From the NCBI GenBank assembly GCA_051313645.2, contig JBNRSN020000031.1:4836001-4900000 (forward strand): a stretch of 64,000 nucleotides of DNA, written 5' to 3'. The DNA is from Centroscyllium fabricii. Taxonomy: Eukaryota. The position numbers and the translations under genes were made by a program. The notes below the pieces were generated by a model. It was not told where the DNA came from and did not search any database. It saw only the letters and a program-made list of their open reading frames with translations. The stretch's first letter is position 1. The number at the start of each line of letters is the position of its first letter. Below, in pieces: positions 27,001 through 56,700 of the stretch.

Positions 27001-29954
27001 ATTATATTCACGTAATCACATGCTGAGTTATCATTGGCCCACAGGCAACTGTATGGACTACCTATTATATTCACGTAATCACATGCTGAGTTATCATTGG
27101 CCCACAGGTATCTGTAAGGACTTCCTATTAAATTCACGTAATCACATACTGAGATATCATTGGCCCACAGGCATTTGGAAGGACTACCTATTATATTCAC
27201 GTAATCACATGCTGAATTATCATTGGACCAAAGGCATCTGTAAGGACTACCTATTATATTCACGTAATCACATGTTGAGTTATCATTGGCCCACAGGCAT
27301 CTGTATGGACTACTTATTATATTCACGTAATCACATGCTGAGTTATCATTGGCCCACAGGCATCTGTAAGGACTACTATTGTATTCACTTAACCACATGC
27401 TGAGTTATCATTGGCCCAATGGCATCTGTAAGGACTACTATTGTATTCACTTAACCACATGCTGAGTTATTATTGGCCGCAGGCATCTGTAAGGACTACC
27501 TATTATATTCACGTAATCACATGCTGAGTTATCATTGGCCCACAGGCATCTGTATGGACCTCGTATTATATTCACGTATTCACATGCTGAGTTATCATTG
27601 GCCCACAGGCATCTGTAAAGACTACCTATTATATTCACGTAATCACATGCTGAGTTATCATTGGCCCACAGGCATCTGGAACGAGTACCTATTATATTCA
27701 CGTAATCACATGCTGAATTATCATTGGACCAAAGGCATCTGTAAGGACTACTATTGTATTCACGTAATCACATGCTGAGATATCATTGGCCCACAGGCAT
27801 CTGTAAGGACTACCTATTATACTTACGTAATCACATGCTGAGTTATCATTGGCCCACAGGCATCTGGAAGGACTACCTATTATATTCACGTAATCACATG
27901 CTGAGTTATCATTGGCCCACAGGCATCTGGAAGGACTACCTATTATTTTCACGTAATCACATGCTGAATTATCATTGGTCCAAAGGCATCTGTAAGGACT
28001 ACCTATTATATTCACGTAATCACTTGTTGAGTTATCATTGGCCCACAGGCATCTGTAAGGACTACCTATTATATTCACGTAATCACATGCTGAATTATCA
28101 TTGGCCCGCAGGCATCTGTAAGGACTACCAATTATATTCACGTGATCACATGCTGAGTCATCATTGGCCCACAGGCATCTGTAAGGACTACTATTGTTTT
28201 CACGTAATCAAATGCTGAGTTATCATTGGCCCACAGGCATCTGTAAGGACTACCTATTATATTCAGGTAATCACATGCTGAATTATCATTGGCCCACAGG
28301 CATCTGTAAGGACTACATATTATATTCACGTATTCACATGCTGAGTTATCATTGGCCCACAGGCATCTGTAAGGACTACCTATTATATTCACGTAATCAC
28401 ATGTGAATTATCATTGGCCCACAGGCATCTGTAATGACTACCTATTATATTTACGTAATCACATGCTGAGTTATCATTGGCCCGCAGGCATCTGTAAGGA
28501 CTACCAATTATATTCACGTGATCACATGCTGAGTTATCATTGGCCCACAGGCATCTGTAAGGACTACTATTGTACTCAATTAACCAAATGCTGAGTTATC
28601 ATTGGCCCACAGGCATCTGTTAGGACTACTATTGTATTCACGTAATCACATGCTGAATTACCATTGCCCACAGGTATCTGTAAGGGTTACCTATTATATT
28701 CACGTAAGCACATGCTGAATTATCATTGGCCCGCAGGCATCTGTAAGGACTACCAATTATATTCACGTGATCACTTGCTGAGTTATCATTGGCCCACAGG
28801 CATCTGTAAGGACTACTATTGTTTTCACGTAATCAAATGCTGAGTTATCATTGGCCCACAGACATCTGTAAGGAATACCTATTATATTCACGTAATCACA
28901 TGCTGAGTTATCATTGGCCCACAGGCATCTGTAAGGATTACCTATTATAATCATGTAATCACATGCTGAGTTATCATTGGCCCACAGGCATCTGTAAGGA
29001 CTATCTATTATATTCACGTAATCACATGCTGAATTACATTGGCACAATGGCATTTGTAAGGACGACTATTGTATTCACGTAATCAAATGCTGAGTTATCA
29101 TTGGCCCACAGGCATCTGTAAGGACTACCTATTATATTCACGTAATCACATGCTGAGATATCATTGGCCCACAGGCATCTGTAAGGACTACCTATTATAT
29201 TCATTTAATCACTTGCTAAGTTATCATTAGCCCACAGGCATCTGTAAGGACTACCTATTATATTCACTTAATCACATGCTGAATTATCATTGGCACACAG
29301 GCATCTGTAGGGACTACCTATTATATTCACGTAATCACATGCTGAGTTATCATTGGCCCGCTGGCATCTGTAAGGACTACCAATTATATTCACGTGATCA
29401 CATGCTGAGTTATCATTGGCCCACAGGCATCTGTAAGGACTACTATTGTATTCACGTAACCAAATGCTGAGTTATCATTGGCACACAGGCATCTTTAAGG
29501 ACTACTATTGTATTCACGTAATCACATGCTGAGTTATCATTGGCCCGCAGGCATCTGTAAGGACTACCTATTATATTCACGTAATCACATGCTGAGTTAT
29601 CATTGGCCCACAGGCATCTGTAAGGACTACTATTATATTCACGTAATCACATGCTGAGTTATCATTGGCCCACAGGCATCTGTAAGGACGACTATTGTAT
29701 TCACGTAATCAAATGCTGAGTTATCATTGGCCACAGGTATCTGTATGGTGTACTATTTTATTCACGTAATCACATGCTGAGTTATCATTGGCCCGCAGGC
29801 ATCTGTAAGGACTACCTATTCTAATCACGTAATCACATGCTGAGTTATCATTGGCCCACAGGCATCTGTATGGACTACCTATTATTTTCACGTAATCACA
29901 TGCTGAATTATCATTGGACCACAGGCATTTGTAAGGACGACCTATTATATTCAC
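1..29954. repeat. 63-bp tandem satellite array, segment 1
   Basis: Uninterrupted head-to-tail copies of TTCACGTAATCACATGCTGAGTTATCATTGGCCCACAGGCATCTGTAAGGACTACCTATTATA (consensus 26/63 GC). Most monomers differ by a few substitutions, and 62-bp deletion variants recur. The array continues past the window start. Confidence 0.99.
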
Positions 29955-30078
29955 AAAGTCACACAACACCAGGTTTAAAGTCCAACGTTTTATTTTAAAT
30001 CACAAGCCTTCGGAGCTTTTGCCCCTTCGTCAGGCAAAGAGAAACTGTTGGACTTTAAACCTGGTGTTGTGTGACTTT
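29955..30078. repeat. Perfect 32-bp inverted repeat (arms 29955-29986 and 30047-30078)
   Basis: AAAGTCACACAACACCAGGTTTAAAGTCCAAC versus GTTGGACTTTAAACCTGGTGTTGTGTGACTTT: exact reverse complements with a 60-bp spacer. Confidence 0.97.
30000..30035 (-). ncRNA. Degenerate minimal hammerhead-ribozyme-like motif
   Basis: The minus strand reads CUGACGA-A-GGGGC-AAAA-GCUCC-GAAG-GCUUGUG: a CUGANGA box, a 5-bp stem II (one G-U pair) with a tetraloop, then GAAG in place of the canonical GAAA. Confidence 0.5.
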
Positions 30079-30126
30079 TTGCATTTGTTCACCCCAGTCC
30101 AACACCGGCACCTCCGCATTATGGGA

Positions 30127-35535: not shown

Positions 35536-35813
35536 TGTGGCGACACGCCCACCGGCAGCCACGAACCCGCGCTGGGAAGGCTGCAAAGCGGCCCCGCCCG
35601 TCGGAGGACGCACGGACTTCCCCGACGTGATGACGTCACCAGGTGGCCAGCCGGCAGTGACGTCCCCAGCCGCGGGACCTTTAAATATCTGAGAGCCAGG
35701 TGGCTCTCTCTCTTTCTCCCTACCTGGCCCTAGCTGTAACAAGTAGTTAATAAAAACTCTGCATTCAACCTCTCTGTGTCCAGCGTGGTCCTTCAGCCTT
35801 GCAGGCCTCAACA
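35536..35813 (+). repeat. 5' LTR of Gypsy element (278 bp)
   Basis: TGTGGCGACACG...GGCCTCAACA. No difference from 40066-40343 found by eye. Confidence 0.97.
35592..35754 (+). promoter_or_regulatory. LTR promoter and polyadenylation signals
   Basis: GC box CCCCGCCC (35592-35599), perfect CRE palindrome TGACGTCA (35631-35638), TATA-like TTTAAATA (35680-35687) and AATAAA (35749-35754), in the expected U3-R order. Motif matches only. Confidence 0.55.
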
Positions 35814-35814
35814 C

Positions 35815-35826
35815 TGGTGACCCCGA
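35815..35826 (+). promoter_or_regulatory. Primer-binding site, tRNA-Trp
   Basis: TGGTGACCCCGA lies one base after the 5' LTR and equals the first 12 nt of the canonical tRNA-Trp PBS TGGTGACCCCGACGTGAT (as in avian sarcoma/leukosis viruses). Confidence 0.88.
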
Positions 35827-35909
35827 TACCTGAGACGTTTCTCAGGGGAACAATGAAGCAGCCACTGCAGGACTGAGGGACAAGCTGCCGCAGCCGAATC
35901 GCTACCACC

Positions 35910-38900
35910 ATGCCAGCAGCAACCGACTCAGCACGCCAAGGCAGACGGGGCCAAGTTTACCTCCCGGTCCCAACCATACCACAATTCTGGGAGCTCCGTC
36001 CAGCGGCTTGGTTTCGCAACACCGAGAACACCTTCCGCATTCATGGCGTGCACGCAGACGACCGCTACAGCCTGCTCTTCGCAGCCCTCGCACAGTCCAC
36101 CATCGACAGAATGTGGGACACCATCGAGGAAGACACTTCTGCTGGCAGGTACGAATCGCTAAAGGCCGCGCTGCTCGCAAAATTTACCCCAACCATTTTC
36201 GAGCGCGATTGCCAGGTCATTAACCTCCCCGACCTGGGAGATGCAGACCCCACCGACTTGTGGGCCCAGTTCGAGGCGCTTAATCGCGACTCAGACACCC
36301 TTAAGCGCGCCCTCTACCTCCTTAAGCTGCCGCCCTCCATCAGACCGACACTGACGGTCTTGGAGCACCTCTCAAACAGGCAGCTAGCTCAGGAGGCAGA
36401 CAAGCTCATTAAGGCCGAGCGCACCCGCGCCACCATGCACCGCCATGCTGCCGCTCAACAAGAGCAGCACCAACCACAACCCCGGCCCCAACTCAGAGCC
36501 GCGCGGACCCACAAAAAGCCACGCACCGCGGCAACCGGCTGGTGCTACTACCATACCAGGTTTGAGGCCAAAGCGCAGCGCTGCGTTCCGCCCTGCAACT
36601 TCAAACCCCAAACCTGCCCCAGCCCCACCATGTGCGTCGGCCGCTCCGGAGCGCTGCTCTTCGTTACAGACAGTGTCTCAGGCCTCCGTTTCCTCTGCGA
36701 CACAGGCGCGCAGCACAGCATCGTGCCAGCCTCCCCCGCAGAATCCAAGCAGGGCACCCAAGGCCCACCACTCAAAGCCGCAAACGGCTCCGAGATACTC
36801 ACGTTCGGTACCCGCCAGCTCACCATTAAACTAGCAGGCCACAGGTATACGTGGGACTTCATCACCGTGCAGGTTAACACGCCCCTACTCGGAGCCGACT
36901 TTCTGTGCGCCCACGGGCTCCTTGTCGATGTTACCCGGCGCCGCCTGGTCGACATCCAAATCATGTCGACCATTCCGTGCTCCACAGCCCCAGCACACCA
37001 GACCCACGCGGCAGCTCACTGCCGGGCCCGCAACTCCGACACGTACGCCACGCTGCTCGCCGAGTTCGCCACCCTAACCAACCCCACCTTCACAGCCCGC
37101 TCCGCCAAGCACGGCGTAGAGCACCACATCACCACCACAGGCCCCCCGGTCCACGCCCACGCACGCAGGCTGGACCCGGCCAAGCTAGAGATCGCTCGAG
37201 CCGAGTTTCACATCATGGAACAGCTCGGCATCATCCGCCGCTCCAGCAGCCCCTGGGCCTCCCCCCTCCACATTGCCCCTAAACCCGATGGCGGCTGGCG
37301 CCCCTGCGGAGACTACCGCCGCCTCAACAACGCCACCACCCCGGATAGGTACCCAGTCCCCCACATCCAGGATTTTTCCGTGAGGCTAGCCGGCTGCACG
37401 GTCTTTTCAAAGATCGACCTGGTACGGGGCTACCACCAAGTTCCAGTGCACCCGGCGGATGTCCCTAAGACAGCCGTCATCACCCCATTCGGCCTATTTG
37501 AATTTCTCCGGATGCCCTTCGGACTCAAAAACGCGGCCCAGGCTTTCCAGCGCCTCATGGACTCAGTCCTCCGGGACCTCCAGTTCACATTCGTCTATCT
37601 CGACGACATCCTGGTGGCCAGCGCCTCCCCCCGGGAACACCTCATCCACCTCAGAACCCTTTTTAAACGCCTGGCCGACCACGGCCTCATATTAAGCCCC
37701 TCCAAGTGCCGATTCGGCCTCGAGGCTATTGACTTCCTCGGCCACCACATCTCCCACACCGGGGCCATACCCCTGCCCTCCAAGGTGCAGGCGGTCCAGG
37801 AATTCCCCCGCCCGCACTCCATCAAGGGGCTGCAGGAATTCCTTGGAATGGTTAATTTTTACAACCGTTTCATCCCCGGCGCAGCCGCCCTCATGGCCCC
37901 CCTCTACCAGGCCACCCACGGGCAATCCAACAAGACCGCGGTCGAGTGGACGGCCGAAGCCGCCACCGCTTTCACCGCAACCAAAACGGCCCTTGCCAAA
38001 GCCACCCTCCTCAGCCACCCCAGGCCCAACGCCAGAGTAGCCCTCACCACCGACGCCTCCGACCACGCTGTCGGAGCAGTCTTCGAGCAGTGGTCGGGCG
38101 ACTCATGGCAACCACTGGCCTTTTTCAGCCGCCGCCTCCGGCCCCCAGAGGTCAAGTACAGCGCCTTCGATAGGGAGCTACTCGCTCTCTACCTCGCAGT
38201 GCGCCACTTCCGCTTCCTTTTAGAGGGCCGCCACTTTACAGCATTTGTGGACCACAAACCATTAGTCTCCGCAATGGCTAAGCTCTCCGAACCCTGGTCG
38301 GCCAGGCAGCAGCGCCAGCTCGCGGCCGTGTCCGAGTTCACGACCGACATCCAGCACATTGCCGGCCGCGACAACGTGGTCGCCGACTGCCTCTCACGAC
38401 CCGCCATTCACAAGCCCAACCCCGACCACCCCGCGGGCCCCGCCATCAGCAGCGCAGGCACAACCGGCACCCAAACCGCCGACCACCCCCCAACCCCAGC
38501 CACCAACCGCGCCTGCGCACACTGCTGCGCATTCCCAACCACCAACACTGTCCAGACCGCGGTCGACTACGTCAAAATGGCGGCCGACCAACTCAGCGAT
38601 CCCGACCTCCTCGACCCCACCAACAAACTTCCCGGCCTACTCTTGGCCACCGTAGCACACGGACCCACAGCCACGGCGGTCCGCTGCGACGTCACCCTGC
38701 CCCAACCCAGGCCCGTGGTGCCCCTCGCGTGGAGGCAGCACATCTTCCAGACCCTCCACGGCCACTCCCACCCCGGCGTCCGCGCATCCACCAAGCTCAT
38801 CTCTGCGCGATTCGTTTGGCGCGGCCTAAAACAAGATGTCCGCGCCTGGACCACCTCGTGCAATGCCTGCCAGCGAGCCAAGGTGCACAAACACATCAAA

Positions 38901-39857
38901 GCACCGCTCCAACCAATCGCCATCCCAGCCAGACGCTTCAGCCACGTGCACATCGACCTGGTTGGACCACTACCCCCATCACGTGGACACTTGTACCTCC
39001 TCACAATGGTCGACCGCACCACCCGCTGGCCTGAAGCGGTCCCCCTCAACACGACCACCACCGCCGAACTGGCCAGGGCCTTCATCGCCACCTGGGTCGC
39101 CCGCTTCGGCGTCCCCAACGACATTACTTCAGACAGGGGCCCCCAATTCACTTCAACTCTATGGTCAACCATCGCTCACGACCTTGGGGTAACCCTGCAC
39201 CGAACCACTGCCTACCACCCGCAAGCCAACGGCCTCTGCGAACGGTTCCACCGAACTTTTAAAACATCCCTGCGGGCCAGCCTCCAGGACGCAACCTGGA
39301 CGGACCGCCTGCCCTGGGTAATGCTCGGCCTCCGCACAGCGGCCAAAGAAGATCTACACGCCTCGGCAGCCGAACTCGTTTACGGCCAACCACTAACCGT
39401 ACCAGGTGAGTTCGTCGCAGAAACAAACGAACCCTGGTCGGCCGAGCGCTGCCTCAGGGAATTCAACAACCAGGCAGCAGAATTCAAACCACTTCCGGTG
39501 GCCCGCCACGGTCAACCGGCGACACGCGTCCCCAACACCATTCAGGACGCCAAGTACGTGTTTGTCCGCCATGACTCTCACAAAGCACCGCTGCAGGCAC
39601 CGTACGACGGGCCATTCAGAGTGCTTCGGGCGGGACCCAAGACTTTTGACATTCAAATGGGCAACAGAACTGAGACCGTATCCATTGACCGGCTCAAACC
39701 AGCACACGTAATGGCGGGCGAGACAACAGTCCCCGCACAACCACCTAAACGCGGCCGCCCTACCGCACCAAAATCCGCCCACACTCCCACACAGACCAAC
39801 AAGCAACACATCACACGTGCCGGCCGTACCATCAGTCCACCTAAGCGCCTCGCCTGA
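35910..39857 (+). CDS. gag-pol: Gag-Pol polyprotein (gag with CHCC box, aspartic protease, reverse transcriptase, RNase H, integrase with GPY/F module), 1315 aa
   Basis: ACCACCATG start. Motifs in order: PQFW..PAAWF (gag), CYYHx9Cx3C, FLCDTGAQHS (protease), SPWASP/DYRRLN/DLVRGYHQ/MPFGLKNA/YLDD (RT), TDAS...YSAFDRELLA...DHKPL...NVVADCLSR (RNase H), HGHSHPG...CNACQ, HIDLVGP, SDRGPQF, NGLCER (integrase), YDGPF. No stops or frameshifts. Confidence 0.98.
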   Translation: MPAATDSARQGRRGQVYLPVPTIPQFWELRPAAWFRNTENTFRIHGVHADDRYSLLFAALAQSTIDRMWDTIEEDTSAGRYESLKAALLAKFTPTIFERDCQVINLPDLGDADPTDLWAQFEALNRDSDTLKRALYLLKLPPSIRPTLTVLEHLSNRQLAQEADKLIKAERTRATMHRHAAAQQEQHQPQPRPQLRAARTHKKPRTAATGWCYYHTRFEAKAQRCVPPCNFKPQTCPSPTMCVGRSGALLFVTDSVSGLRFLCDTGAQHSIVPASPAESKQGTQGPPLKAANGSEILTFGTRQLTIKLAGHRYTWDFITVQVNTPLLGADFLCAHGLLVDVTRRRLVDIQIMSTIPCSTAPAHQTHAAAHCRARNSDTYATLLAEFATLTNPTFTARSAKHGVEHHITTTGPPVHAHARRLDPAKLEIARAEFHIMEQLGIIRRSSSPWASPLHIAPKPDGGWRPCGDYRRLNNATTPDRYPVPHIQDFSVRLAGCTVFSKIDLVRGYHQVPVHPADVPKTAVITPFGLFEFLRMPFGLKNAAQAFQRLMDSVLRDLQFTFVYLDDILVASASPREHLIHLRTLFKRLADHGLILSPSKCRFGLEAIDFLGHHISHTGAIPLPSKVQAVQEFPRPHSIKGLQEFLGMVNFYNRFIPGAAALMAPLYQATHGQSNKTAVEWTAEAATAFTATKTALAKATLLSHPRPNARVALTTDASDHAVGAVFEQWSGDSWQPLAFFSRRLRPPEVKYSAFDRELLALYLAVRHFRFLLEGRHFTAFVDHKPLVSAMAKLSEPWSARQQRQLAAVSEFTTDIQHIAGRDNVVADCLSRPAIHKPNPDHPAGPAISSAGTTGTQTADHPPTPATNRACAHCCAFPTTNTVQTAVDYVKMAADQLSDPDLLDPTNKLPGLLLATVAHGPTATAVRCDVTLPQPRPVVPLAWRQHIFQTLHGHSHPGVRASTKLISARFVWRGLKQDVRAWTTSCNACQRAKVHKHIKAPLQPIAIPARRFSHVHIDLVGPLPPSRGHLYLLTMVDRTTRWPEAVPLNTTTTAELARAFIATWVARFGVPNDITSDRGPQFTSTLWSTIAHDLGVTLHRTTAYHPQANGLCERFHRTFKTSLRASLQDATWTDRLPWVMLGLRTAAKEDLHASAAELVYGQPLTVPGEFVAETNEPWSAERCLREFNNQAAEFKPLPVARHGQPATRVPNTIQDAKYVFVRHDSHKAPLQAPYDGPFRVLRAGPKTFDIQMGNRTETVSIDRLKPAHVMAGETTVPAQPPKRGRPTAPKSAHTPTQTNKQHITRAGRTISPPKRLA

Positions 39858-40053
39858 GGCGACACGGGCAGAGCATAGACGGCCCGCCACAACACCATCT
39901 TTCGAACCACGGAACAGCACACAACACCTGCCGGCCACAACACCAGGCCATTGCGGCAAACTGTCGGACATTCTGTGTGTAATCGAAATGTGTGTCTGCT
40001 CTCCTTTTTGTCTCCCTCTCCTCTAGGAAACTACACTTCCCCTCGCGGATTCT

Positions 40054-40062
40054 GGGGGGGAG
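40054..40062 (+). promoter_or_regulatory. Polypurine tract
   Basis: GGGGGGGAG three bases upstream of the 3' LTR. Confidence 0.8.
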
Positions 40063-40065
40063 CTG

Positions 40066-40343
40066 TGTGGCGACACGCCCACCGGCAGCCACGAACCCGC
40101 GCTGGGAAGGCTGCAAAGCGGCCCCGCCCGTCGGAGGACGCACGGACTTCCCCGACGTGATGACGTCACCAGGTGGCCAGCCGGCAGTGACGTCCCCAGC
40201 CGCGGGACCTTTAAATATCTGAGAGCCAGGTGGCTCTCTCTCTTTCTCCCTACCTGGCCCTAGCTGTAACAAGTAGTTAATAAAAACTCTGCATTCAACC
40301 TCTCTGTGTCCAGCGTGGTCCTTCAGCCTTGCAGGCCTCAACA
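40066..40343 (+). repeat. 3' LTR of Gypsy element (278 bp)
   Basis: Direct repeat of 35536-35813 at offset 4530, followed by the TSD ACGT. Confidence 0.97.
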
Positions 40344-49300: not shown

Positions 49301-50009
49301 CTACCTGTTATATTCACGTAATCACATGCTGAGTTATCATTGGCCCACAGGCATTTGGAAGGACTACCTATTATAATCACGTATTCACATGCTGAGTTAT
49401 CATTGGCCCTCAGGCATCTGTAAGGACTACCTTTTATATTCACGTAATCACATGCTGAATTATCATTGGCCAACAGGCATCTGTAAGGACTACCTATTAT
49501 ATTCACGTAATCATATGCTGAGTTATCATCGGCCAACAGTCATCTGTAAGGACAACTTATTGTATTCAAGTAATCACATGCTGAGTTATCATTGGCCCAC
49601 AGGCATCTGTAAGGACTACCTATTATATTCACATAATCACATGCTGAGTTATCATTGGCCCACAGGCATCTGTAAGGACTACCTATTATATTCACGTAAT
49701 CTCATGCTGAGTTATCATTGGCCCACAGGTATCTGTAAGGACTACCTATTATATTCACGTAATCACATGCTGCGTTATCATTGTCCCACAGGCATCTGGA
49801 AGGACTACCAATTATATTCACGTAATCACATGCTGAATTATCATTGGACCAAAGGCATCTGTAAGGACTACCTGTTATATTCACGTAATCACATGTTGAG
49901 TTATCATTGGCCCACAGGCATCTGTAAGGACTACCTATTATATTCACGTAATCACATGTTGAGTTATCATTGGCCCACAGGCATCTGGAAGGACTATCTA
50001 TTATATTCA
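40344..50009. repeat. 63-bp tandem satellite array, segment 3
   Basis: The monomer resumes in register after the TSD. Confidence 0.99.
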
Positions 50010-50330
50010 TGTAACCCTTTTTACGATTGGCCCCCCCCCTTCTCCTTTACTGAGAATGGGGGGGTAGGTTAATACCAATTACCCCGTAGGTTCTTAACGT
50101 ACCCCACGTGTAGAACTCTGTGACCTCCACCCAAATGTAACCCTTTTAACTTGAGAGAGATGAATCTGAGACAAGATTTCTATTTACAAACTTTAATAAC
50201 AGGGTTGGGAGATAGAGTTTAAATACAAACAGTGTTAAACAACTAGCAACTGCATACACAAATAGAAAGCAGCATTAATGTCATACAACAAATCATTTAC
50301 ACATTCATTCAGCTCACAACCACTCCCAAG

Positions 50331-50497
50331 AACACACTTCAATCAGAACTTTACAATGGCAAGGCGCTCGCTTTAGCACCCTTCCAGAACACATTTCAAT
50401 CAGCAATTTACAATGGCAAGGCACTCGCTTTAGCACCCTCACAGAACACATTTCAATCAGCAATTTACAATGGCAAGGCATCCACTTTAGCACCCTT
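50331..50497. repeat. 57-bp tandem repeat x3 inside the LTR (also at about 51981-52147)
   Basis: CAATGGC recurs at 50354, 50411 and 50468. Confidence 0.9.
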
Positions 50498-50504
50498 ACA
50501 CCTT

Positions 50505-51050
50505 GTTCCCCAAGCCCTTTTCTCAGAAGTTATTACTCACGACTGTCCGAATAGGGCTTGACAATGAGGACCGTACACTACAGTCTCCTCATCTCAAGGG
50601 AGACAACGATGGCTCTTGGATCTGCCTCTGTCCTTTTAACACGAAAGCTTCCAGCATCTTCCAGCAGTGGGCGTCGCACACAGCTCTCCACCCTCTGCTT
50701 CCTGCAACCTCGTCTTCCCCAAGCCCTTCTCTCAGTAGCCGCCACTCACGACTGTCCGAATAGGGCTTGACAATGAGTACCGTACACTACAGCCTACTCA
50801 TCTCAAGAGAAACAACGACGGCTCTTGGAACTGTCTCTCAGTCCTTTTAACACGAAAGCCTCCAGCCTCTTCCAGCAATGGGCGTCGCACACAGCTCTCC
50901 ACCCTCTGCTTCCTGCAACCTCGTCTTCCCCAAGCCCTTCTCTCAGTAGCCGCCACTCACGACTGTCCGAACAGGGCTTGGCAATGAGTACCGTACACTA
51001 CAGCCTACTCATCCCAAGGGAAACAACGACGGCTCTTGGAACTGCCTCTC
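50505..51050. repeat. ~211-bp tandem repeat inside the left LTR (about 2.6 units)
   Basis: CACGACTGTCCGAA recurs at 50538, 50747 and 50958. Confidence 0.92.
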
Positions 51051-51515
51051 TCATGGCTTCTCTGGATCTTTCCCGGATCTTCTCAATCTAACCTCCTTCT
51101 GGATCTTCCCCGGATCTTCTCAATCTAACCTCCTGCTCAATCTTCTCTCTTCCTCCTGCGCTCTATCTTAATTCCAGCTCAATCTTCTCTCCAGCTCAAT
51201 CTTAATAATCCTGTCTCTAGGCGTGTCCAGCCTTTTATCCTGTCCTGGCTCCACCCTCCAGTAACTCACCCCACTTTTAGCCAGCCTATCACAAAGCAAT
51301 CACACAGACTGGCCGGAGCCGAGTGCTGGTTTCCATGGCAGCCCAGCCTGTCTGAAACAGTGTTCAATCTCACACCTGGACAACCACCCCATGTGATCTG
51401 AACTTCCAGACAAACTGGCACCGAAGAGGTCACCTGACCTCAGACCACTGGATCCCTAGACTTTTAACCCTTTAGGGAGATTCTCCCTGACTCTGGGTTT
51501 CAGACCCAGGTTACA

Positions 51516-51525
51516 CTCCCCCCTT
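51516..51525 (-). promoter_or_regulatory. Polypurine tract
   Basis: The minus strand reads AAGGGGGGAG immediately before the TGTAACC start of the 3' LTR. Confidence 0.85.
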
Positions 51526-51639
51526 ACCAAACCTAGTCATGTCCTCATGACTACACCACAAAGTAACTGTGCTCACGTCCATCTCTCTCTCGGCAACAAT
51601 GGGTTCACTCCACTAGTGTATGAAACTGGAAGTCACAGT

Positions 51640-51659
51640 ATCCCGGAAACGAGCCCCCA
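51640..51659 (-). promoter_or_regulatory. Primer-binding site, tRNA-Pro
   Basis: The minus strand reads TGGGGGCTCGT-tt-CCGGGAT, 2 nt after the LTR end. The canonical tRNA-Pro PBS (as in MoMLV) is TGGGGGCTCGTCCGGGAT. Confidence 0.88.
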
Positions 51660-51661
51660 AA

Positions 51662-53798
51662 TGTAACCCTTTTTACGATTGGCCCCCCCCTCTCCTTTAC
51701 TGAGAATGGGGGGGTAGGTTAATACCAATTACCCCGTAGGTTCTTAACGTACCCCACGTGTAGAACTCTGTGACCTCCACCCAAATGTAACCCTTTTAAC
51801 TTGAGAGAGATGAATCTGAGACAAGATTTCTATTTACAAACTTTAATAACAGGGTTGGGAGATAGAGTTTAAATACAAACAGTGTTAAACAACTAGCAAC
51901 TGCATACACAAATAGAAAGCAGCATTAATGTCATACAACAAATCATTTACACATTCATTCAGCTCACAAACACTCCCAAGAACACACTTCAATCAGAACT
52001 TTACAATGGCAAGGTGCTCGCTTTAGCACCCTTCCAGAACACATTTCAATCAGCAATTTACAATGGCAAGGCACTCGCTTTAGCACCCTCACAGAACACA
52101 TTTCAATCAGCAATTTACAATGGCAAGGCATCCACTTTAGCACCCTTACACCTTGTTCCCCAAGCCCTTTTCTCAGAAGTTATTACTCACGACTGTCCGA
52201 ATAGGGCTTGACAATGAGGACCGTACACTACAGTCTCCTCATCTCAAGGGAGACAACGACGGCTCTTGGATCTGCCTCTGTCCTTTTAACACGAAAGCTT
52301 CCAGCATCTTCCAGCAGTGGGCGTCGCACACAGCTCTCCACCCTCTGCTTCCTGCAACCTCGTCTTCCCCAAGCCCTTCTCTCAGTAGCCGCCACTCACG
52401 ACTGTCCGAATAGGGCTTGACAATGAGTACCGTACACTACAGCCTACTCATCTCAAGAGAAACAACGACGGCTCTTGGAACTGTCTCTCAGTCCTTTTAA
52501 CACGAAAGCCTCCAGCCTCTTCCAGCAATGGGCGTCGCACACAGCTCTCCACCCTCTGCTTCCTGCAACCTCGTCTTCCCCAAGCCCTTCTCTCAGTAGC
52601 CGCCACTCACGACTGTCCGAACAGGGCTTGACAATGAGTACCGTACACTACAGCCTACTCATCTCAAGGGAAACAACGACGGCTCTTGGGACTGTCTCTC
52701 AGTCCTTTTAACACGAAAGCCTCCAGCATCTTCCAGCAGTGGGCGTCGCACACAGCTCTCCACCCTCTGCTTCCTGCAACCTCGTCTTCCCCAAGCCCTT
52801 CTCTCAGTAGCCGCCACTCACGACTGTCCGAATAGGGCTTGACAATGAGTACCGTACACTACAGCCTACTCATCTCAAGAGAAACAACGACGGCTCTTGG
52901 AACTGTCTCTCAGTCCTTTTAACACGAAAGCCTCCAGCCTCTTCCAGCAATGGGCGTCGCACACAGCTCTCCACCCTCTGCTTCCTGCAACCTCGTCTTC
53001 CCCAAGCCCTTCTCTCAGTAGCCGCCACTCACGACTGTCCGAATAGGGCTTGACAATGAGTACCGTACACTACAGCCTACTCATCTCAAGAGAAACAACG
53101 ACGGCTCTTGGAACTGTCTCTCAGTCCTTTTAACACGAAAGCCTCCAGCATCTTCCAGCAGTGGGCGTCGCACACAGCTCTCCACCCTCTGCTTCCTGCA
53201 ACCTCGTCTTCCCCAAGCCCTTCTCTCAGTAGCCGCCACTCACGACTGTCCGAACAGGGCTTGGCAATGAGTACCGTACACTACAGCCTACTCATCCCAA
53301 GGGAAACAACGACGGCTCTTGGAACTGCCTCTCTCATGGCTTCTCTGGATCTTTCCCGGATCTTCTCAATCTAACCTCCTTCTGGATCTTCCCCGGATCT
53401 TCTCAATCTAACCTCCTGCTCAATCTTCTCTCTTCCTCCTGCGCTCTATCTTAATTCCAGCTCAATCTTCTCTCCAGCTCAATCTTAATAATCCTGTCTC
53501 TAGGCGTGTCCAGCCTTTTATCCTGTCCTGGCTCCACCCTCCAGTAACTCACCCCACTTTTAGCCAGCCTATCACAAAGCAATCACACAGACTGGCCGGA
53601 GCCGAGTGCTGGTTTCCATGGCAGCCCAGCCTGGCTGAAACAGTGTTCAATCTCACACCTGGACAACCACCCCATGTGATCTGAACTTCCAGACAAACTG
53701 GCACCGAAGAGGTCACCTGACCTCAGACCACTGGATCCCTAGACTTTTAACCCTTTAGGGAGATTCTCCCTGACTCTGGGTTTCAGACCCAGGTTACA
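51662..53798 (-). repeat. 5' LTR (2137 bp) of the non-autonomous element
   Basis: Copy of 50010-51515 with three additional 211-bp units, a 2-bp indel at the C tract and about four substitutions seen by eye. Confidence 0.92.
52155..53333. repeat. ~211-bp tandem repeat inside the right LTR (about 5.6 units)
   Basis: CACGACTGTCCGAA recurs at 52188, 52397, 52608, 52819, 53030 and 53241. Confidence 0.92.
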
Positions 53799-56700
53799 TT
53801 CACGTAATCACATGCTGAGTTATCATTTGCCACAGGTATCTGTAAGGACAACCTATTATATTCACGTAATCACATGCTGAGTTATCATTGGCCCACAGGC
53901 ATCTGTAAGGACTACCTATTATATTCACGTAATCAAATGCTGAGTTATCATTGGCCTGCAGGCATCTGTAAGAACTGCCTATTATATTCACGTAATCAGA
54001 TGCTGAGTTATCATTGGCCCACAGGCATCTGTAAGGACTACCTTTTATATTCACGTAATCACATGCTGAATTATCATTGGCCAACAGGCATCTGTAAGGA
54101 CTACCTATTATATTCACGTAATCATATGCTGAGTTATCATCGGCCAACAGTCATCTGTAAGGACAACATATTGTATTCAAGTAATCACATGCTGAGTTAT
54201 CATTGGCCCACTGGCATCTGTATGGACTACCTATTATATTCACGTAATCACATTCTGAGTTATCATCGGCCCACAGGCATCTGGAAGGACTATCTATAAT
54301 ATTCACGTAATCACATGCTGATTTATCATTGGACCAAAGGCATCTGTAAGGACTAATATTGTATTCACGTAATCACATGCTGAGTTATCATTGGCCCGCA
54401 GGCATCTGTAAGAACTACCAATTATATTCACGTGATCACATGCTGAGTTATCATTGGCCCACAGGCATCTGTAAGGACTAGTATTGTACTCAATTAACCA
54501 AATGCTGAGTTATCATTGGCCCAAATTCATCTGTAAGGACTACTATTGTATTCACGTAATCACATGCTGAGTTATCATTGGCACGCAGGCATCTGCAAGG
54601 ACCACCTATTATATTCACGTAATCACACGCTGGGTTATCATTGGCCCACAGGCATCTGTAAGGACTACTATTATATTCACGTATTCACAAGATGAGTTAT
54701 CATTGGCCCACTGGCATCTGTAAGGACTACTATTGTATTCACGTAATCAAACGCTGAGATATCATTGGCCCACAGGCATCTGTAAGGACTACTATTGTAT
54801 TCACGTAATCACATGCTGAGTTATAATTGGCCCGCAGGCATCTGTATGGGCTACCTATTATATTCACGTAATCACATGCTGAGTTATCATTGGCCCACAG
54901 GCATCTGTAAGGACTACTGTTATATTAACGTAATCATATGCTGAGTTATCATTGGCCCATAGGCATCTGTAAGGACTACCTATTATATTCACGTAATCAA
55001 ATGCTGAATTATCATTGTCCCAGAGGCATCTGTAAGGACTACCTATTATTATCACGTAATCACATGCTGAATTATCATTGGCCCACAGGAATCTGTAAGG
55101 ACTACCTATTATATTCATGTAATCACATGCTGAGTTATCATTGGCCCACAGGCATCTGTAAGGACTACCTGTTATATTCACGTAATCACATGCTGAGTTA
55201 TCATTGGCCCACAGGCGTTTGGAAGGACTACCTATTATATTCACGTATTCACATGCTGAGTTATCATTGGCCCACAGGCATCTGTAAGGACTACCTTTTA
55301 TATTCACGTAATCACATGCTGAATTATCATTGGCCAACAGGCATCTGTAAGGACTACCTATTATATTTACGTAATCATATGCTGAGTTATCATTGGCCCA
55401 CAGGCATCTGTAAGGACAACTTATTGTATTCAAGTAATCATATGCTGAGTTATCATTGGCCCACAGGCATCTGTAAGGACTACCTATTATATTCACATAA
55501 TCACATGCTGAGTTATCATTGGCCCACAGGTATCTGTAAGGACTACCTATTATATTCACATAATCACATGCTGCGTTATCATTGTCCCACAGGCATCTGG
55601 AAGGACTACCAATTATATTCACGTAATCACATGTTGAGTTATCATTGGCCCACAGGCATCTGTAAGGACTACCTATTATATTCACATAATCACATGTTGA
55701 GTTATCATTGGCCCACAGGCATCTGGAAGGACTATCTATTATATTCACGTAATCACATGCTGAGTTATCATTGGCCACAGGCATCTGTAAGGACAACCTA
55801 TTATATTCACGTAATCACATGCTGAGTTATCATTGGCCCACAGGCATCTGTAAGGACTACCTATTATATTCACGTAATCAAATGCTGAGTTATCATTGGC
55901 CTGCAGGCATCTGTAAGAACTGCCTATTATATTTACGTAATCAGATGCTGAGTTATCATCGGCCCACAGGCATCTGTAAGGACTACCTATTATATTCACG
56001 TAATCACATGCTGAGTTATCATTGGCCCACAGGCATCTGTAAGAACTACCTTTTATATTCACGTAATCACATGCTGAATTATCATTGGCCCACAGGCATC
56101 TGGAAGGACTACCTATTATATTCACGTAATCACATTCTGATTTATCATTGGCCAACAGGCATCTGGAAGGACTACCTATTATATTCACGTAATCACATGC
56201 TGAATTATCATTGGACCAAAGGCATCTGTAAGGACTACCTATATATTCAGGTAATCACATGCTGAATTATCATTGCCCACAGGCATCTGTAAGGACTACC
56301 TATTATATTCACGTAATCACATGCTGAGTTATCATTGCCCCACTGGCATCTGTATGGACTACCTATTATATTCACGTAATCACATTCTGAGTTATCATCG
56401 GCCCACAGGCATCTGGAAGGACTATCTATAATATTCACGTAATCACATGCTGATTTATCATTGGACCAAAGGCATCTGTAAGGACAAATATTGTATTCAC
56501 GTAATCACATGCTGAGATATCATTGGCCCACAGGCATTTGTAAGGACTACCTATTATATTTACGTAATTACATGCTGAGTTATCATTGGCCCACAGGCAT
56601 CTGGAAGGACTACCTATTATATTCACGTAATCACATGCTGAGTTATCATTGGCCCACATGCATCTGGAAGGCCTACCTATTATATTCACGTAATCACATG

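Follow-up and report, generated by a model that had tools for sequence, protein, structure and literature searches.

How can a retroelement that is almost entirely long terminal repeat (LTR) be copied and inserted elsewhere? The question is raised by a locus in Centroscyllium fabricii (assembly GCA_051313645.2, contig JBNRSN020000031.1, positions 4,836,001–4,900,000 of the forward strand), a stretch of 64,000 nt that is referred to here as the window. At positions 50010–53798 of the window, on the minus strand, an LTR element of 3789 bp lies embedded in a 63-bp satellite. It very probably inserted recently and belongs to a multi-copy, non-autonomous family of vertebrate LTR retrotransposons that is moved in trans by a helper primed with tRNA-Pro.

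Anatomy of the element

The element is bounded by two direct LTRs, each with TG...CA ends, and is flanked by a 4-bp target-site duplication (TSD), the limits of which are fixed by the register of the surrounding satellite. An earlier note on this DNA had described near-identical LTRs of 1506 and 2137 bp and an intact TSD, and all of its coordinates and sizes are exact. Over 1504 aligned bases the LTR pair differs by four substitutions (0.27%); there are also a 2-bp indel in a run of C and a single 633-bp indel. A primer binding site (PBS) with a two-base bulge follows one LTR and a polypurine tract (PPT) precedes the other. From their positions the element lies on the minus strand, and the 2137-bp repeat is therefore the 5′ LTR; the earlier note gave no strand. 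Coordinates are collected in Table 1.

The longest stop-to-stop frame inside the element is 104 aa, and a search for frames of at least 120 aa gave none. Judged from these frame lengths and the 146-bp interior, the element has no gag/pol coding capacity. A scan for sigma-70 promoters and terminators found nothing, and such a scan does not apply to a eukaryote.

The interior is non-coding and holds only a PBS, a hairpin and a PPT, which bears out the earlier description. The PBS equals the published PBS-Pro (sequence printed in PMC4587795; the tRNA-Pro 3′ primer sequence is given in PMC12217144) apart from the bulge, which follows PBS base 11. The stem of the hairpin was equalled in 11 of 2000 mononucleotide shuffles, and a putative role in packaging or dimerisation may be considered for it. 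The core as a whole does not fold more stably than expected by chance (z = +1.0; an equally good fold was obtained for 168 of 200 shuffles).

Evidence for a multi-copy family

An element of this shape might also be a full-length element that lost its interior once, with no replicating short form behind it. Only one copy is present within the window, and an internal loss of this sort would leave the ends with the PBS and PPT in place. The clean TSD and the proper distances of both priming signals also fit transposition of the short form. To look beyond the window, contigs of public sequencing runs were searched with an 816-bp query (51170–51985). Sixteen runs were listed, 14 of them with part of the query, from six studies that cover organisms A to E and a fish-gut metagenome. 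Contigs were aligned from four of the 16 runs, X1, X6, X10 and X11, one each for organisms A to D, with none for organism E or the fish-gut metagenome. Contig depth is not a copy number and cannot rank parts of the element, and the counts of variants and loose ends given below are counts among the contigs listed.

On the 816-bp stretch, 1058 contigs were placed from X1 and 346 from X6, and all 30 bins were covered, including those of the core. In X1 the bin means were 26,000–57,000 over the core and 56,000–314,000 over the shared LTR parts, as rough values of contig depth. In organisms A and B the core is covered by overlapping contigs, with several variants within a single run: at least five contigs at 51568 in X1 and at least five in X6, and at least four at 51617 in X1. 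The window's own letter at 51568 is unlike nearly all of the aligned depth in X1, X6 and X11, and these contigs therefore represent other copies and not simply this locus. In organism D, one 302-nt contig (51351–51652, with nine differing letters) extends from U3 across the PPT and the core and reaches into the PBS, so that the PPT and PBS sides are linked within one sequence. LTR tips joined to flanks other than the satellite were found in organism C (X10, behind 51517) and in organism D (X11, before 51660). Taken together, the core variants, the bridge in organism D and the flanks in organisms C and D indicate that the short form exists in several copies. The element thus belongs to a family, as the earlier note had anticipated, and a one-off deletion is very improbable.

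Of the aligned material in X1 and X6, a fraction of just 0.01 continues differently from the 816-bp stretch. Runs X11 to X14 each hold small shares of the query stretch. Loose contig ends cluster at 51211–51220, 51305 and 51945–51952, from which it follows that the array-rich middle of the LTR varies, subfamilies differing there, while the U3 and U5 sides are common. None of the 16 runs listed for the query is an RNA run, which says nothing on expression.

The PBS could also be followed in these contigs. The bulged form (51647–51648) is the common one among the contigs aligned to the core. The T-run of the PBS has three lengths in X1, and the forms shorter by one or two letters make up roughly 6% and 10% of the summed X1 depth, which is a rough measure.

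Tandem arrays and the length of the LTRs

Tandem arrays make up 1482 of the 2137 bases of the 5′ LTR and 849 of the 1506 bases of the 3′ LTR. Their units are 211, 57, 37 and 17 bp in size, and 655 bp (5′) and 657 bp (3′) of non-repeat LTR remain. The length of the LTRs is thus mostly inflation, by tandem repeats, of an LTR of about 655 bp, a feature that the earlier note overlooked.

The difference in length between the LTRs is exactly three 211-bp units (633 bp). If a single 633-bp block is taken out of the 5′ array, what is left matches the 3′ array with one mismatch, and one unit of the 5′ array carries a letter that is found in no 3′ unit. A loss from the 3′ LTR, or a collapse in the assembly, is therefore simpler than a gain. 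The LTRs were probably equal at insertion, three units of the 3′ LTR being lost later by recombination within the array or by assembly collapse.

Collapse of near-identical units could likewise be read as a sign that the whole structure is an assembly artefact of the satellite array, or two adjacent solo LTRs, and the element does lie within a 64-kb satellite array. This reading is hardly credible, since a single TSD surrounds the whole element, the spacer between the LTRs is not satellite, the PBS and PPT are in the correct order and position, and the join of LTR, PPT and core is bridged in an independent organism.

A TATA-like motif is found at LTR position 277, and the only hexamer of the ATTAAA/AATAAA type in the LTR, a putative poly(A) signal, lies about 187 nt from the LTR end. 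The boundary of U3 and R may be placed about 30 nt downstream of the TATA-like motif. Since the arrays are situated between the two motifs, they would fall within R and the RNA would be about 3.3 kb long, if the motifs function as they look.

The 3′ terminus is present twice in each LTR, the inner copy lying about 125 bp from the end, a duplication which the earlier note did not mention. The terminal module between the inner and outer copies folds well (z = −2.48; 2 of 200 shuffles were as good) and is spanned by a contig in X1. It is not homologous to the core, with a global alignment score of −47 vs a shuffle mean of −38. The module opens with a PBS-like TGG run after the inner LTR end and has a purine tract near the opposite end, and it resembles a relic of an older mini-interior. 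In one X6 contig the module is joined at 51782 to a different sequence that ends in a terminus of the TG..CA type.

Table 1. Features of the element and its target site, in window coordinates.
Feature	Position	Strand	Remark
5′ LTR, 2137 bp, TGTAAC...GTTACA	51662–53798	−	655 bp outside tandem arrays
3′ LTR, 1506 bp, TGTAAC...GTTACA	50010–51515	−	657 bp outside tandem arrays
TSD, left copy, TTCA, 4 bp	50006–50009		Sequence and satellite register
TSD, right copy, TTCA, 4 bp	53799–53802		Sequence and satellite register
Non-coding core, 146 bp	51516–51661	−	Also covered by contigs from organisms A, B and D
PBS, tRNA-Pro type, two-base bulge	51640–51659	−	Match to published PBS-Pro
Spacer between 5′ LTR and PBS, 2 nt	51660–51661	−	
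PPT, 10 purines, abuts 3′ LTR	51516–51525	−	
Hairpin, 8-bp perfect stem, 4-nt loop	51534–51553	−	Sequence and shuffle test
211-bp array, 5.6 units	52156–53333	−	5′ LTR
211-bp array, 2.6 units	50506–51050	−	3′ LTR
57-bp array, three units	51979–52150; copy 50329–50500	−	
37-bp and 17-bp arrays (smaller)	53344–53489; 51061–51206	−	
TATA-like motif	53514–53522; copy 51231–51239	−	Motif only
Putative poly(A) signal	50192–50197; copy 51842–51847	−	Motif only
Terminal module, about 125 bp	51662–51791; inner end 51786–51791	−	5′ LTR
Terminal module, same	50010–50141; inner end 50136–50141	−	3′ LTR

Candidates for the helper

The neighbouring LTR element is a Gypsy at 35536–40343 on the plus strand. 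It appears intact, with identical 278-bp LTRs, an ACGT TSD and one frame of 1326 aa that contains DUF7041, reverse transcriptase (RT), RNase H and integrase. The named relatives of its protein are from teleosts at about 50–63% identity, and none exceeds 65% among the best 120 matches. It is presumably CsRn1-like and primed by tRNA-Trp, although a search for confirmation of this primer gave nothing. Since its LTR ends and PBS differ from those of the element and blastn gave no match between the two at E<0.05, it is unlikely to be the partner, in agreement with the opinion of the earlier note.

The junction of LTR end and PBS was then used as a pattern, with GTTACA required. Among metagenome contigs nine loci were found. 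Seven of them run into a complete PBS-Pro, and in another the contig stops before the PBS is complete. The ninth (L002), a chance match inside an unrelated open reading frame (ORF), was dropped. Seven of the nine share one LTR end and so constitute one family. Two ORFs scanned from the junction loci presented a SCAN-like domain (below the cut-off) with a CCHC gag, and an integrase that precedes RT-RNase H. The Gmr1 clade reportedly goes back to Goodwin and Poulter in 2002. An integrase ahead of RT is the Gmr1 order according to PMC8220671, SCAN is described in Gmr elements (PMC4131045), and Gypsy elements of the Gmr1 clade are also treated in PMC2582038.

A complete Gypsy element in the Gmr1 order, about 6.3 kb long with a frame of 1660 aa and LTRs of about 1 kb, is assembled in several metagenome contigs (L001, L004, L005 and L009), of which three have terminal redundancy. 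In L001 and L009 the GTTACA-TT-PBS junction is identical to that of the element. In contrast to the element, both are autonomous and their PBS is unbulged, and there is nothing else in common; they are candidates for the class of the helper, not members of the element's family. The gag region of L009 gave 10 matches in the protein set, the named ones being echinoderm and mollusc sequences and none from fish. Among viral contigs, the pattern with GTTACA gave no match, and of 10 candidate relatives of the L009 RT none was confirmed.

A non-autonomous derivative of an ERV1-type (gamma- or epsilon-like) endogenous retrovirus (ERV), comparable to VL30 or other ERV satellites without coding capacity and moved by retroviral enzymes, would differ from the preferred explanation in the helper only. 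A 4-bp TSD fits class I ERVs. With a looser pattern, CA-TT-PBS-Pro, two viral contigs were matched and both are of gammaretrovirus type (Gag_p30, TLV_coat). The same TT spacer is present in a murine leukaemia virus probe (PMC4587795). The GTTACA end, however, is in neither viral LTR and is present in the Gmr1-like family. A short U3 with a very long R, as the motifs would have it, is unlike gammaretroviral LTRs, and in one of the two viral contigs (L010) the PBS is preceded by only about 140 nt. Retroviral packaging signals usually need a few hundred bases of leader, whereas the core provides about 115. We therefore consider an ERV1 derivative doubtful.

Proposed cycle

With a helper in place, the cycle may be pictured as follows. 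Transcription by RNA polymerase II would begin some 300 bp inside the 5′ LTR and end near the ATTAAA of the 3′ LTR, giving a non-coding RNA of about 3.3 kb with a long R region that is mostly tandem repeats. The RNA would be packaged by the Gag of the helper, whose RT would use tRNA-Pro at the PBS as one primer and the PPT as the other. The helper integrase would recognise the TGTAAC/GTTACA ends and make the 4-bp TSD. The family may be active at present.

A minimal parasite of this kind, mobilised in trans, had been proposed in the earlier note, and two parts of the proposal stand: the element is non-autonomous, with no long frame, and the match to PBS-Pro agrees with priming by tRNA-Pro. Several observations weigh against the wider picture. 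No helper was seen among the sequences searched, and the host genome assembly was not one of these. The bulge in the PBS leaves just 11 contiguous primer matches, and the transcript ends are drawn from motifs only. No contig spans the whole 816-bp stretch; a sister form with a long interior and the same LTR may exist, and both flanks of a second copy were seen in no contig. As for the identity of the helper, the link to Gmr1 comes from one family of invertebrate type, found with a pattern that demanded GTTACA, and this family and the element are alike over about 28 nt only. The looser pattern brought the same junction from two gammaretrovirus-type genomes. A Gypsy of the Gmr1 type is therefore the leading guess and not a result, and it could equally well prove right or wrong. 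An ERV1-type retrovirus and, with slightly lower odds, another Gypsy are possible though less likely helpers. In favour of a Gypsy helper, 4-bp TSDs occur in the animal Helenus elements, the helpers of which are assigned to Gypsy (PMC10886601). The partners of non-autonomous elements are often untraceable (PMC13570524).

Surroundings

The window is otherwise a homogeneous satellite of 63 bp, at least 64 kb long, with 1016 units and 79–82% matches; the array is possibly centromeric or subtelomeric. It is interrupted three times, by a 172-bp insert near 29955, by the neighbouring Gypsy and by the element. The insert (29952–30126, about 172 bp) has a 48-nt inverted repeat and a flanking duplication of about 10 bp, and Rfam gave sub-threshold matches only. 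It presumably resembles the end of a Penelope-type shark repeat with a hammerhead-like core. These three unrelated insertions (at 29951, 35535 and 50009) hit the 63-bp monomer at nearly the same place, to within about 6 bp, which hints at a preferred accessible insertion site in the satellite (n = 3).

Significance

The element adds an apparently uncatalogued vertebrate case to the end of the non-autonomous LTR continuum where long LTRs enclose a tiny interior, and structure-based annotation tends to miss such elements (PMC13570524). An interior of 146 bp narrowly bounds how much interior sequence packaging and priming can require, unless the signals have moved into the long R. Either outcome would help to define cis requirements in a poorly studied group of Gypsy elements; no new mechanism is introduced.

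A more ambitious reading, which we regard as a long shot, is that of an abundant and still-active vertebrate family, the first minimal parasite to be recognised for Gypsy elements of the Gmr1 type, with a TRIM-sized core (TRIM, terminal-repeat retrotransposon in miniature) and a kilobase R of interchangeable, subfamily-specific repeat cassettes as a cargo copied into both LTRs. If true, the family would seed tandem repeats around the genome. The bulge of the PBS, still present in most of the aligned depth, would then mean that copying does not regularly rewrite the primer site from the tRNA.

Comparison with known element classes

The earlier note had held that the element is neither a TRIM nor a large retrotransposon derivative (LARD). 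Both size definitions do fail. TRIMs are given as <1 kb with terminal repeats of 100–250 bp (PMC6934838), and the upper bound is 1 kb or 1.5 kb by the definition used, with LARDs >4 kb (PMC13570524). At 3789 bp, with LTRs of 1506 and 2137 bp (about 655 bp each if the arrays are discounted), the element exceeds strict TRIM size. LARDs have a long interior, and the element, with 3.8 kb in total and an interior of 146 bp, falls short in both respects; its total would be about 4.4 kb if both LTRs once had 2137 bp. What it has in common with LARDs is the non-coding sequence, long LTRs, PBS and PPT (PMC13570524). The same source treats the size classes of TRIM and LARD as ends of a continuum in which 1.5–4 kb has no name, so that the earlier note's placement outside both classes is correct by size only.

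In its short, non-coding interior with PBS and PPT the element has the TRIM layout, and it works like a TRIM. The interior of biv-TRIM is similar, a PBS, a short spacer and a PPT in 77–80 bp (PMC6934838). The vertebrate Helenus elements LTR1_LCh, LTR2_LCh and LTR-11_DR differ in having His, Leu or Lys primers, and the longest Helenus listed is 1263 bp vs 3789 bp here (PMC10886601). No tRNA as found in Helenus, Ajax and Cassandra (TRIMp3) was detected in the element by ARAGORN, which a decayed remnant could escape. Rfam (E≤5) returned four weak TCL6_1 matches only, far below gathering, with no 5S and no ribozyme family, and the hammerhead motif CTGANGA of retrozymes is on neither strand. Literature searches on fishes and sharks returned no such element; Repbase and Dfam were outside this search, and it is possibly annotated there.

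The closest comparison is with sugar beet, where 14 of 115 families (TRIM-95, -97 and -116 to -127) have LTRs of 2.1–5.5 kb around small interiors and a ratio of length to twice the LTR of 1.05–1.11 (Maiwald et al. 2026, PMC13570524); the ratio of the element is 1.04. As listed in that paper, these families resemble the element in having no protein domains, a PBS and PPT, TGTA/TACA ends, TSDs in most copies and no autonomous partner. They differ in that they are from a plant, have a tRNA-Met primer and have interiors of about 330–1220 bp vs 146 bp, and no homology is implied. The almost-pure-LTR layout has thus already been published in plants, and the element is a new example and not a new kind.

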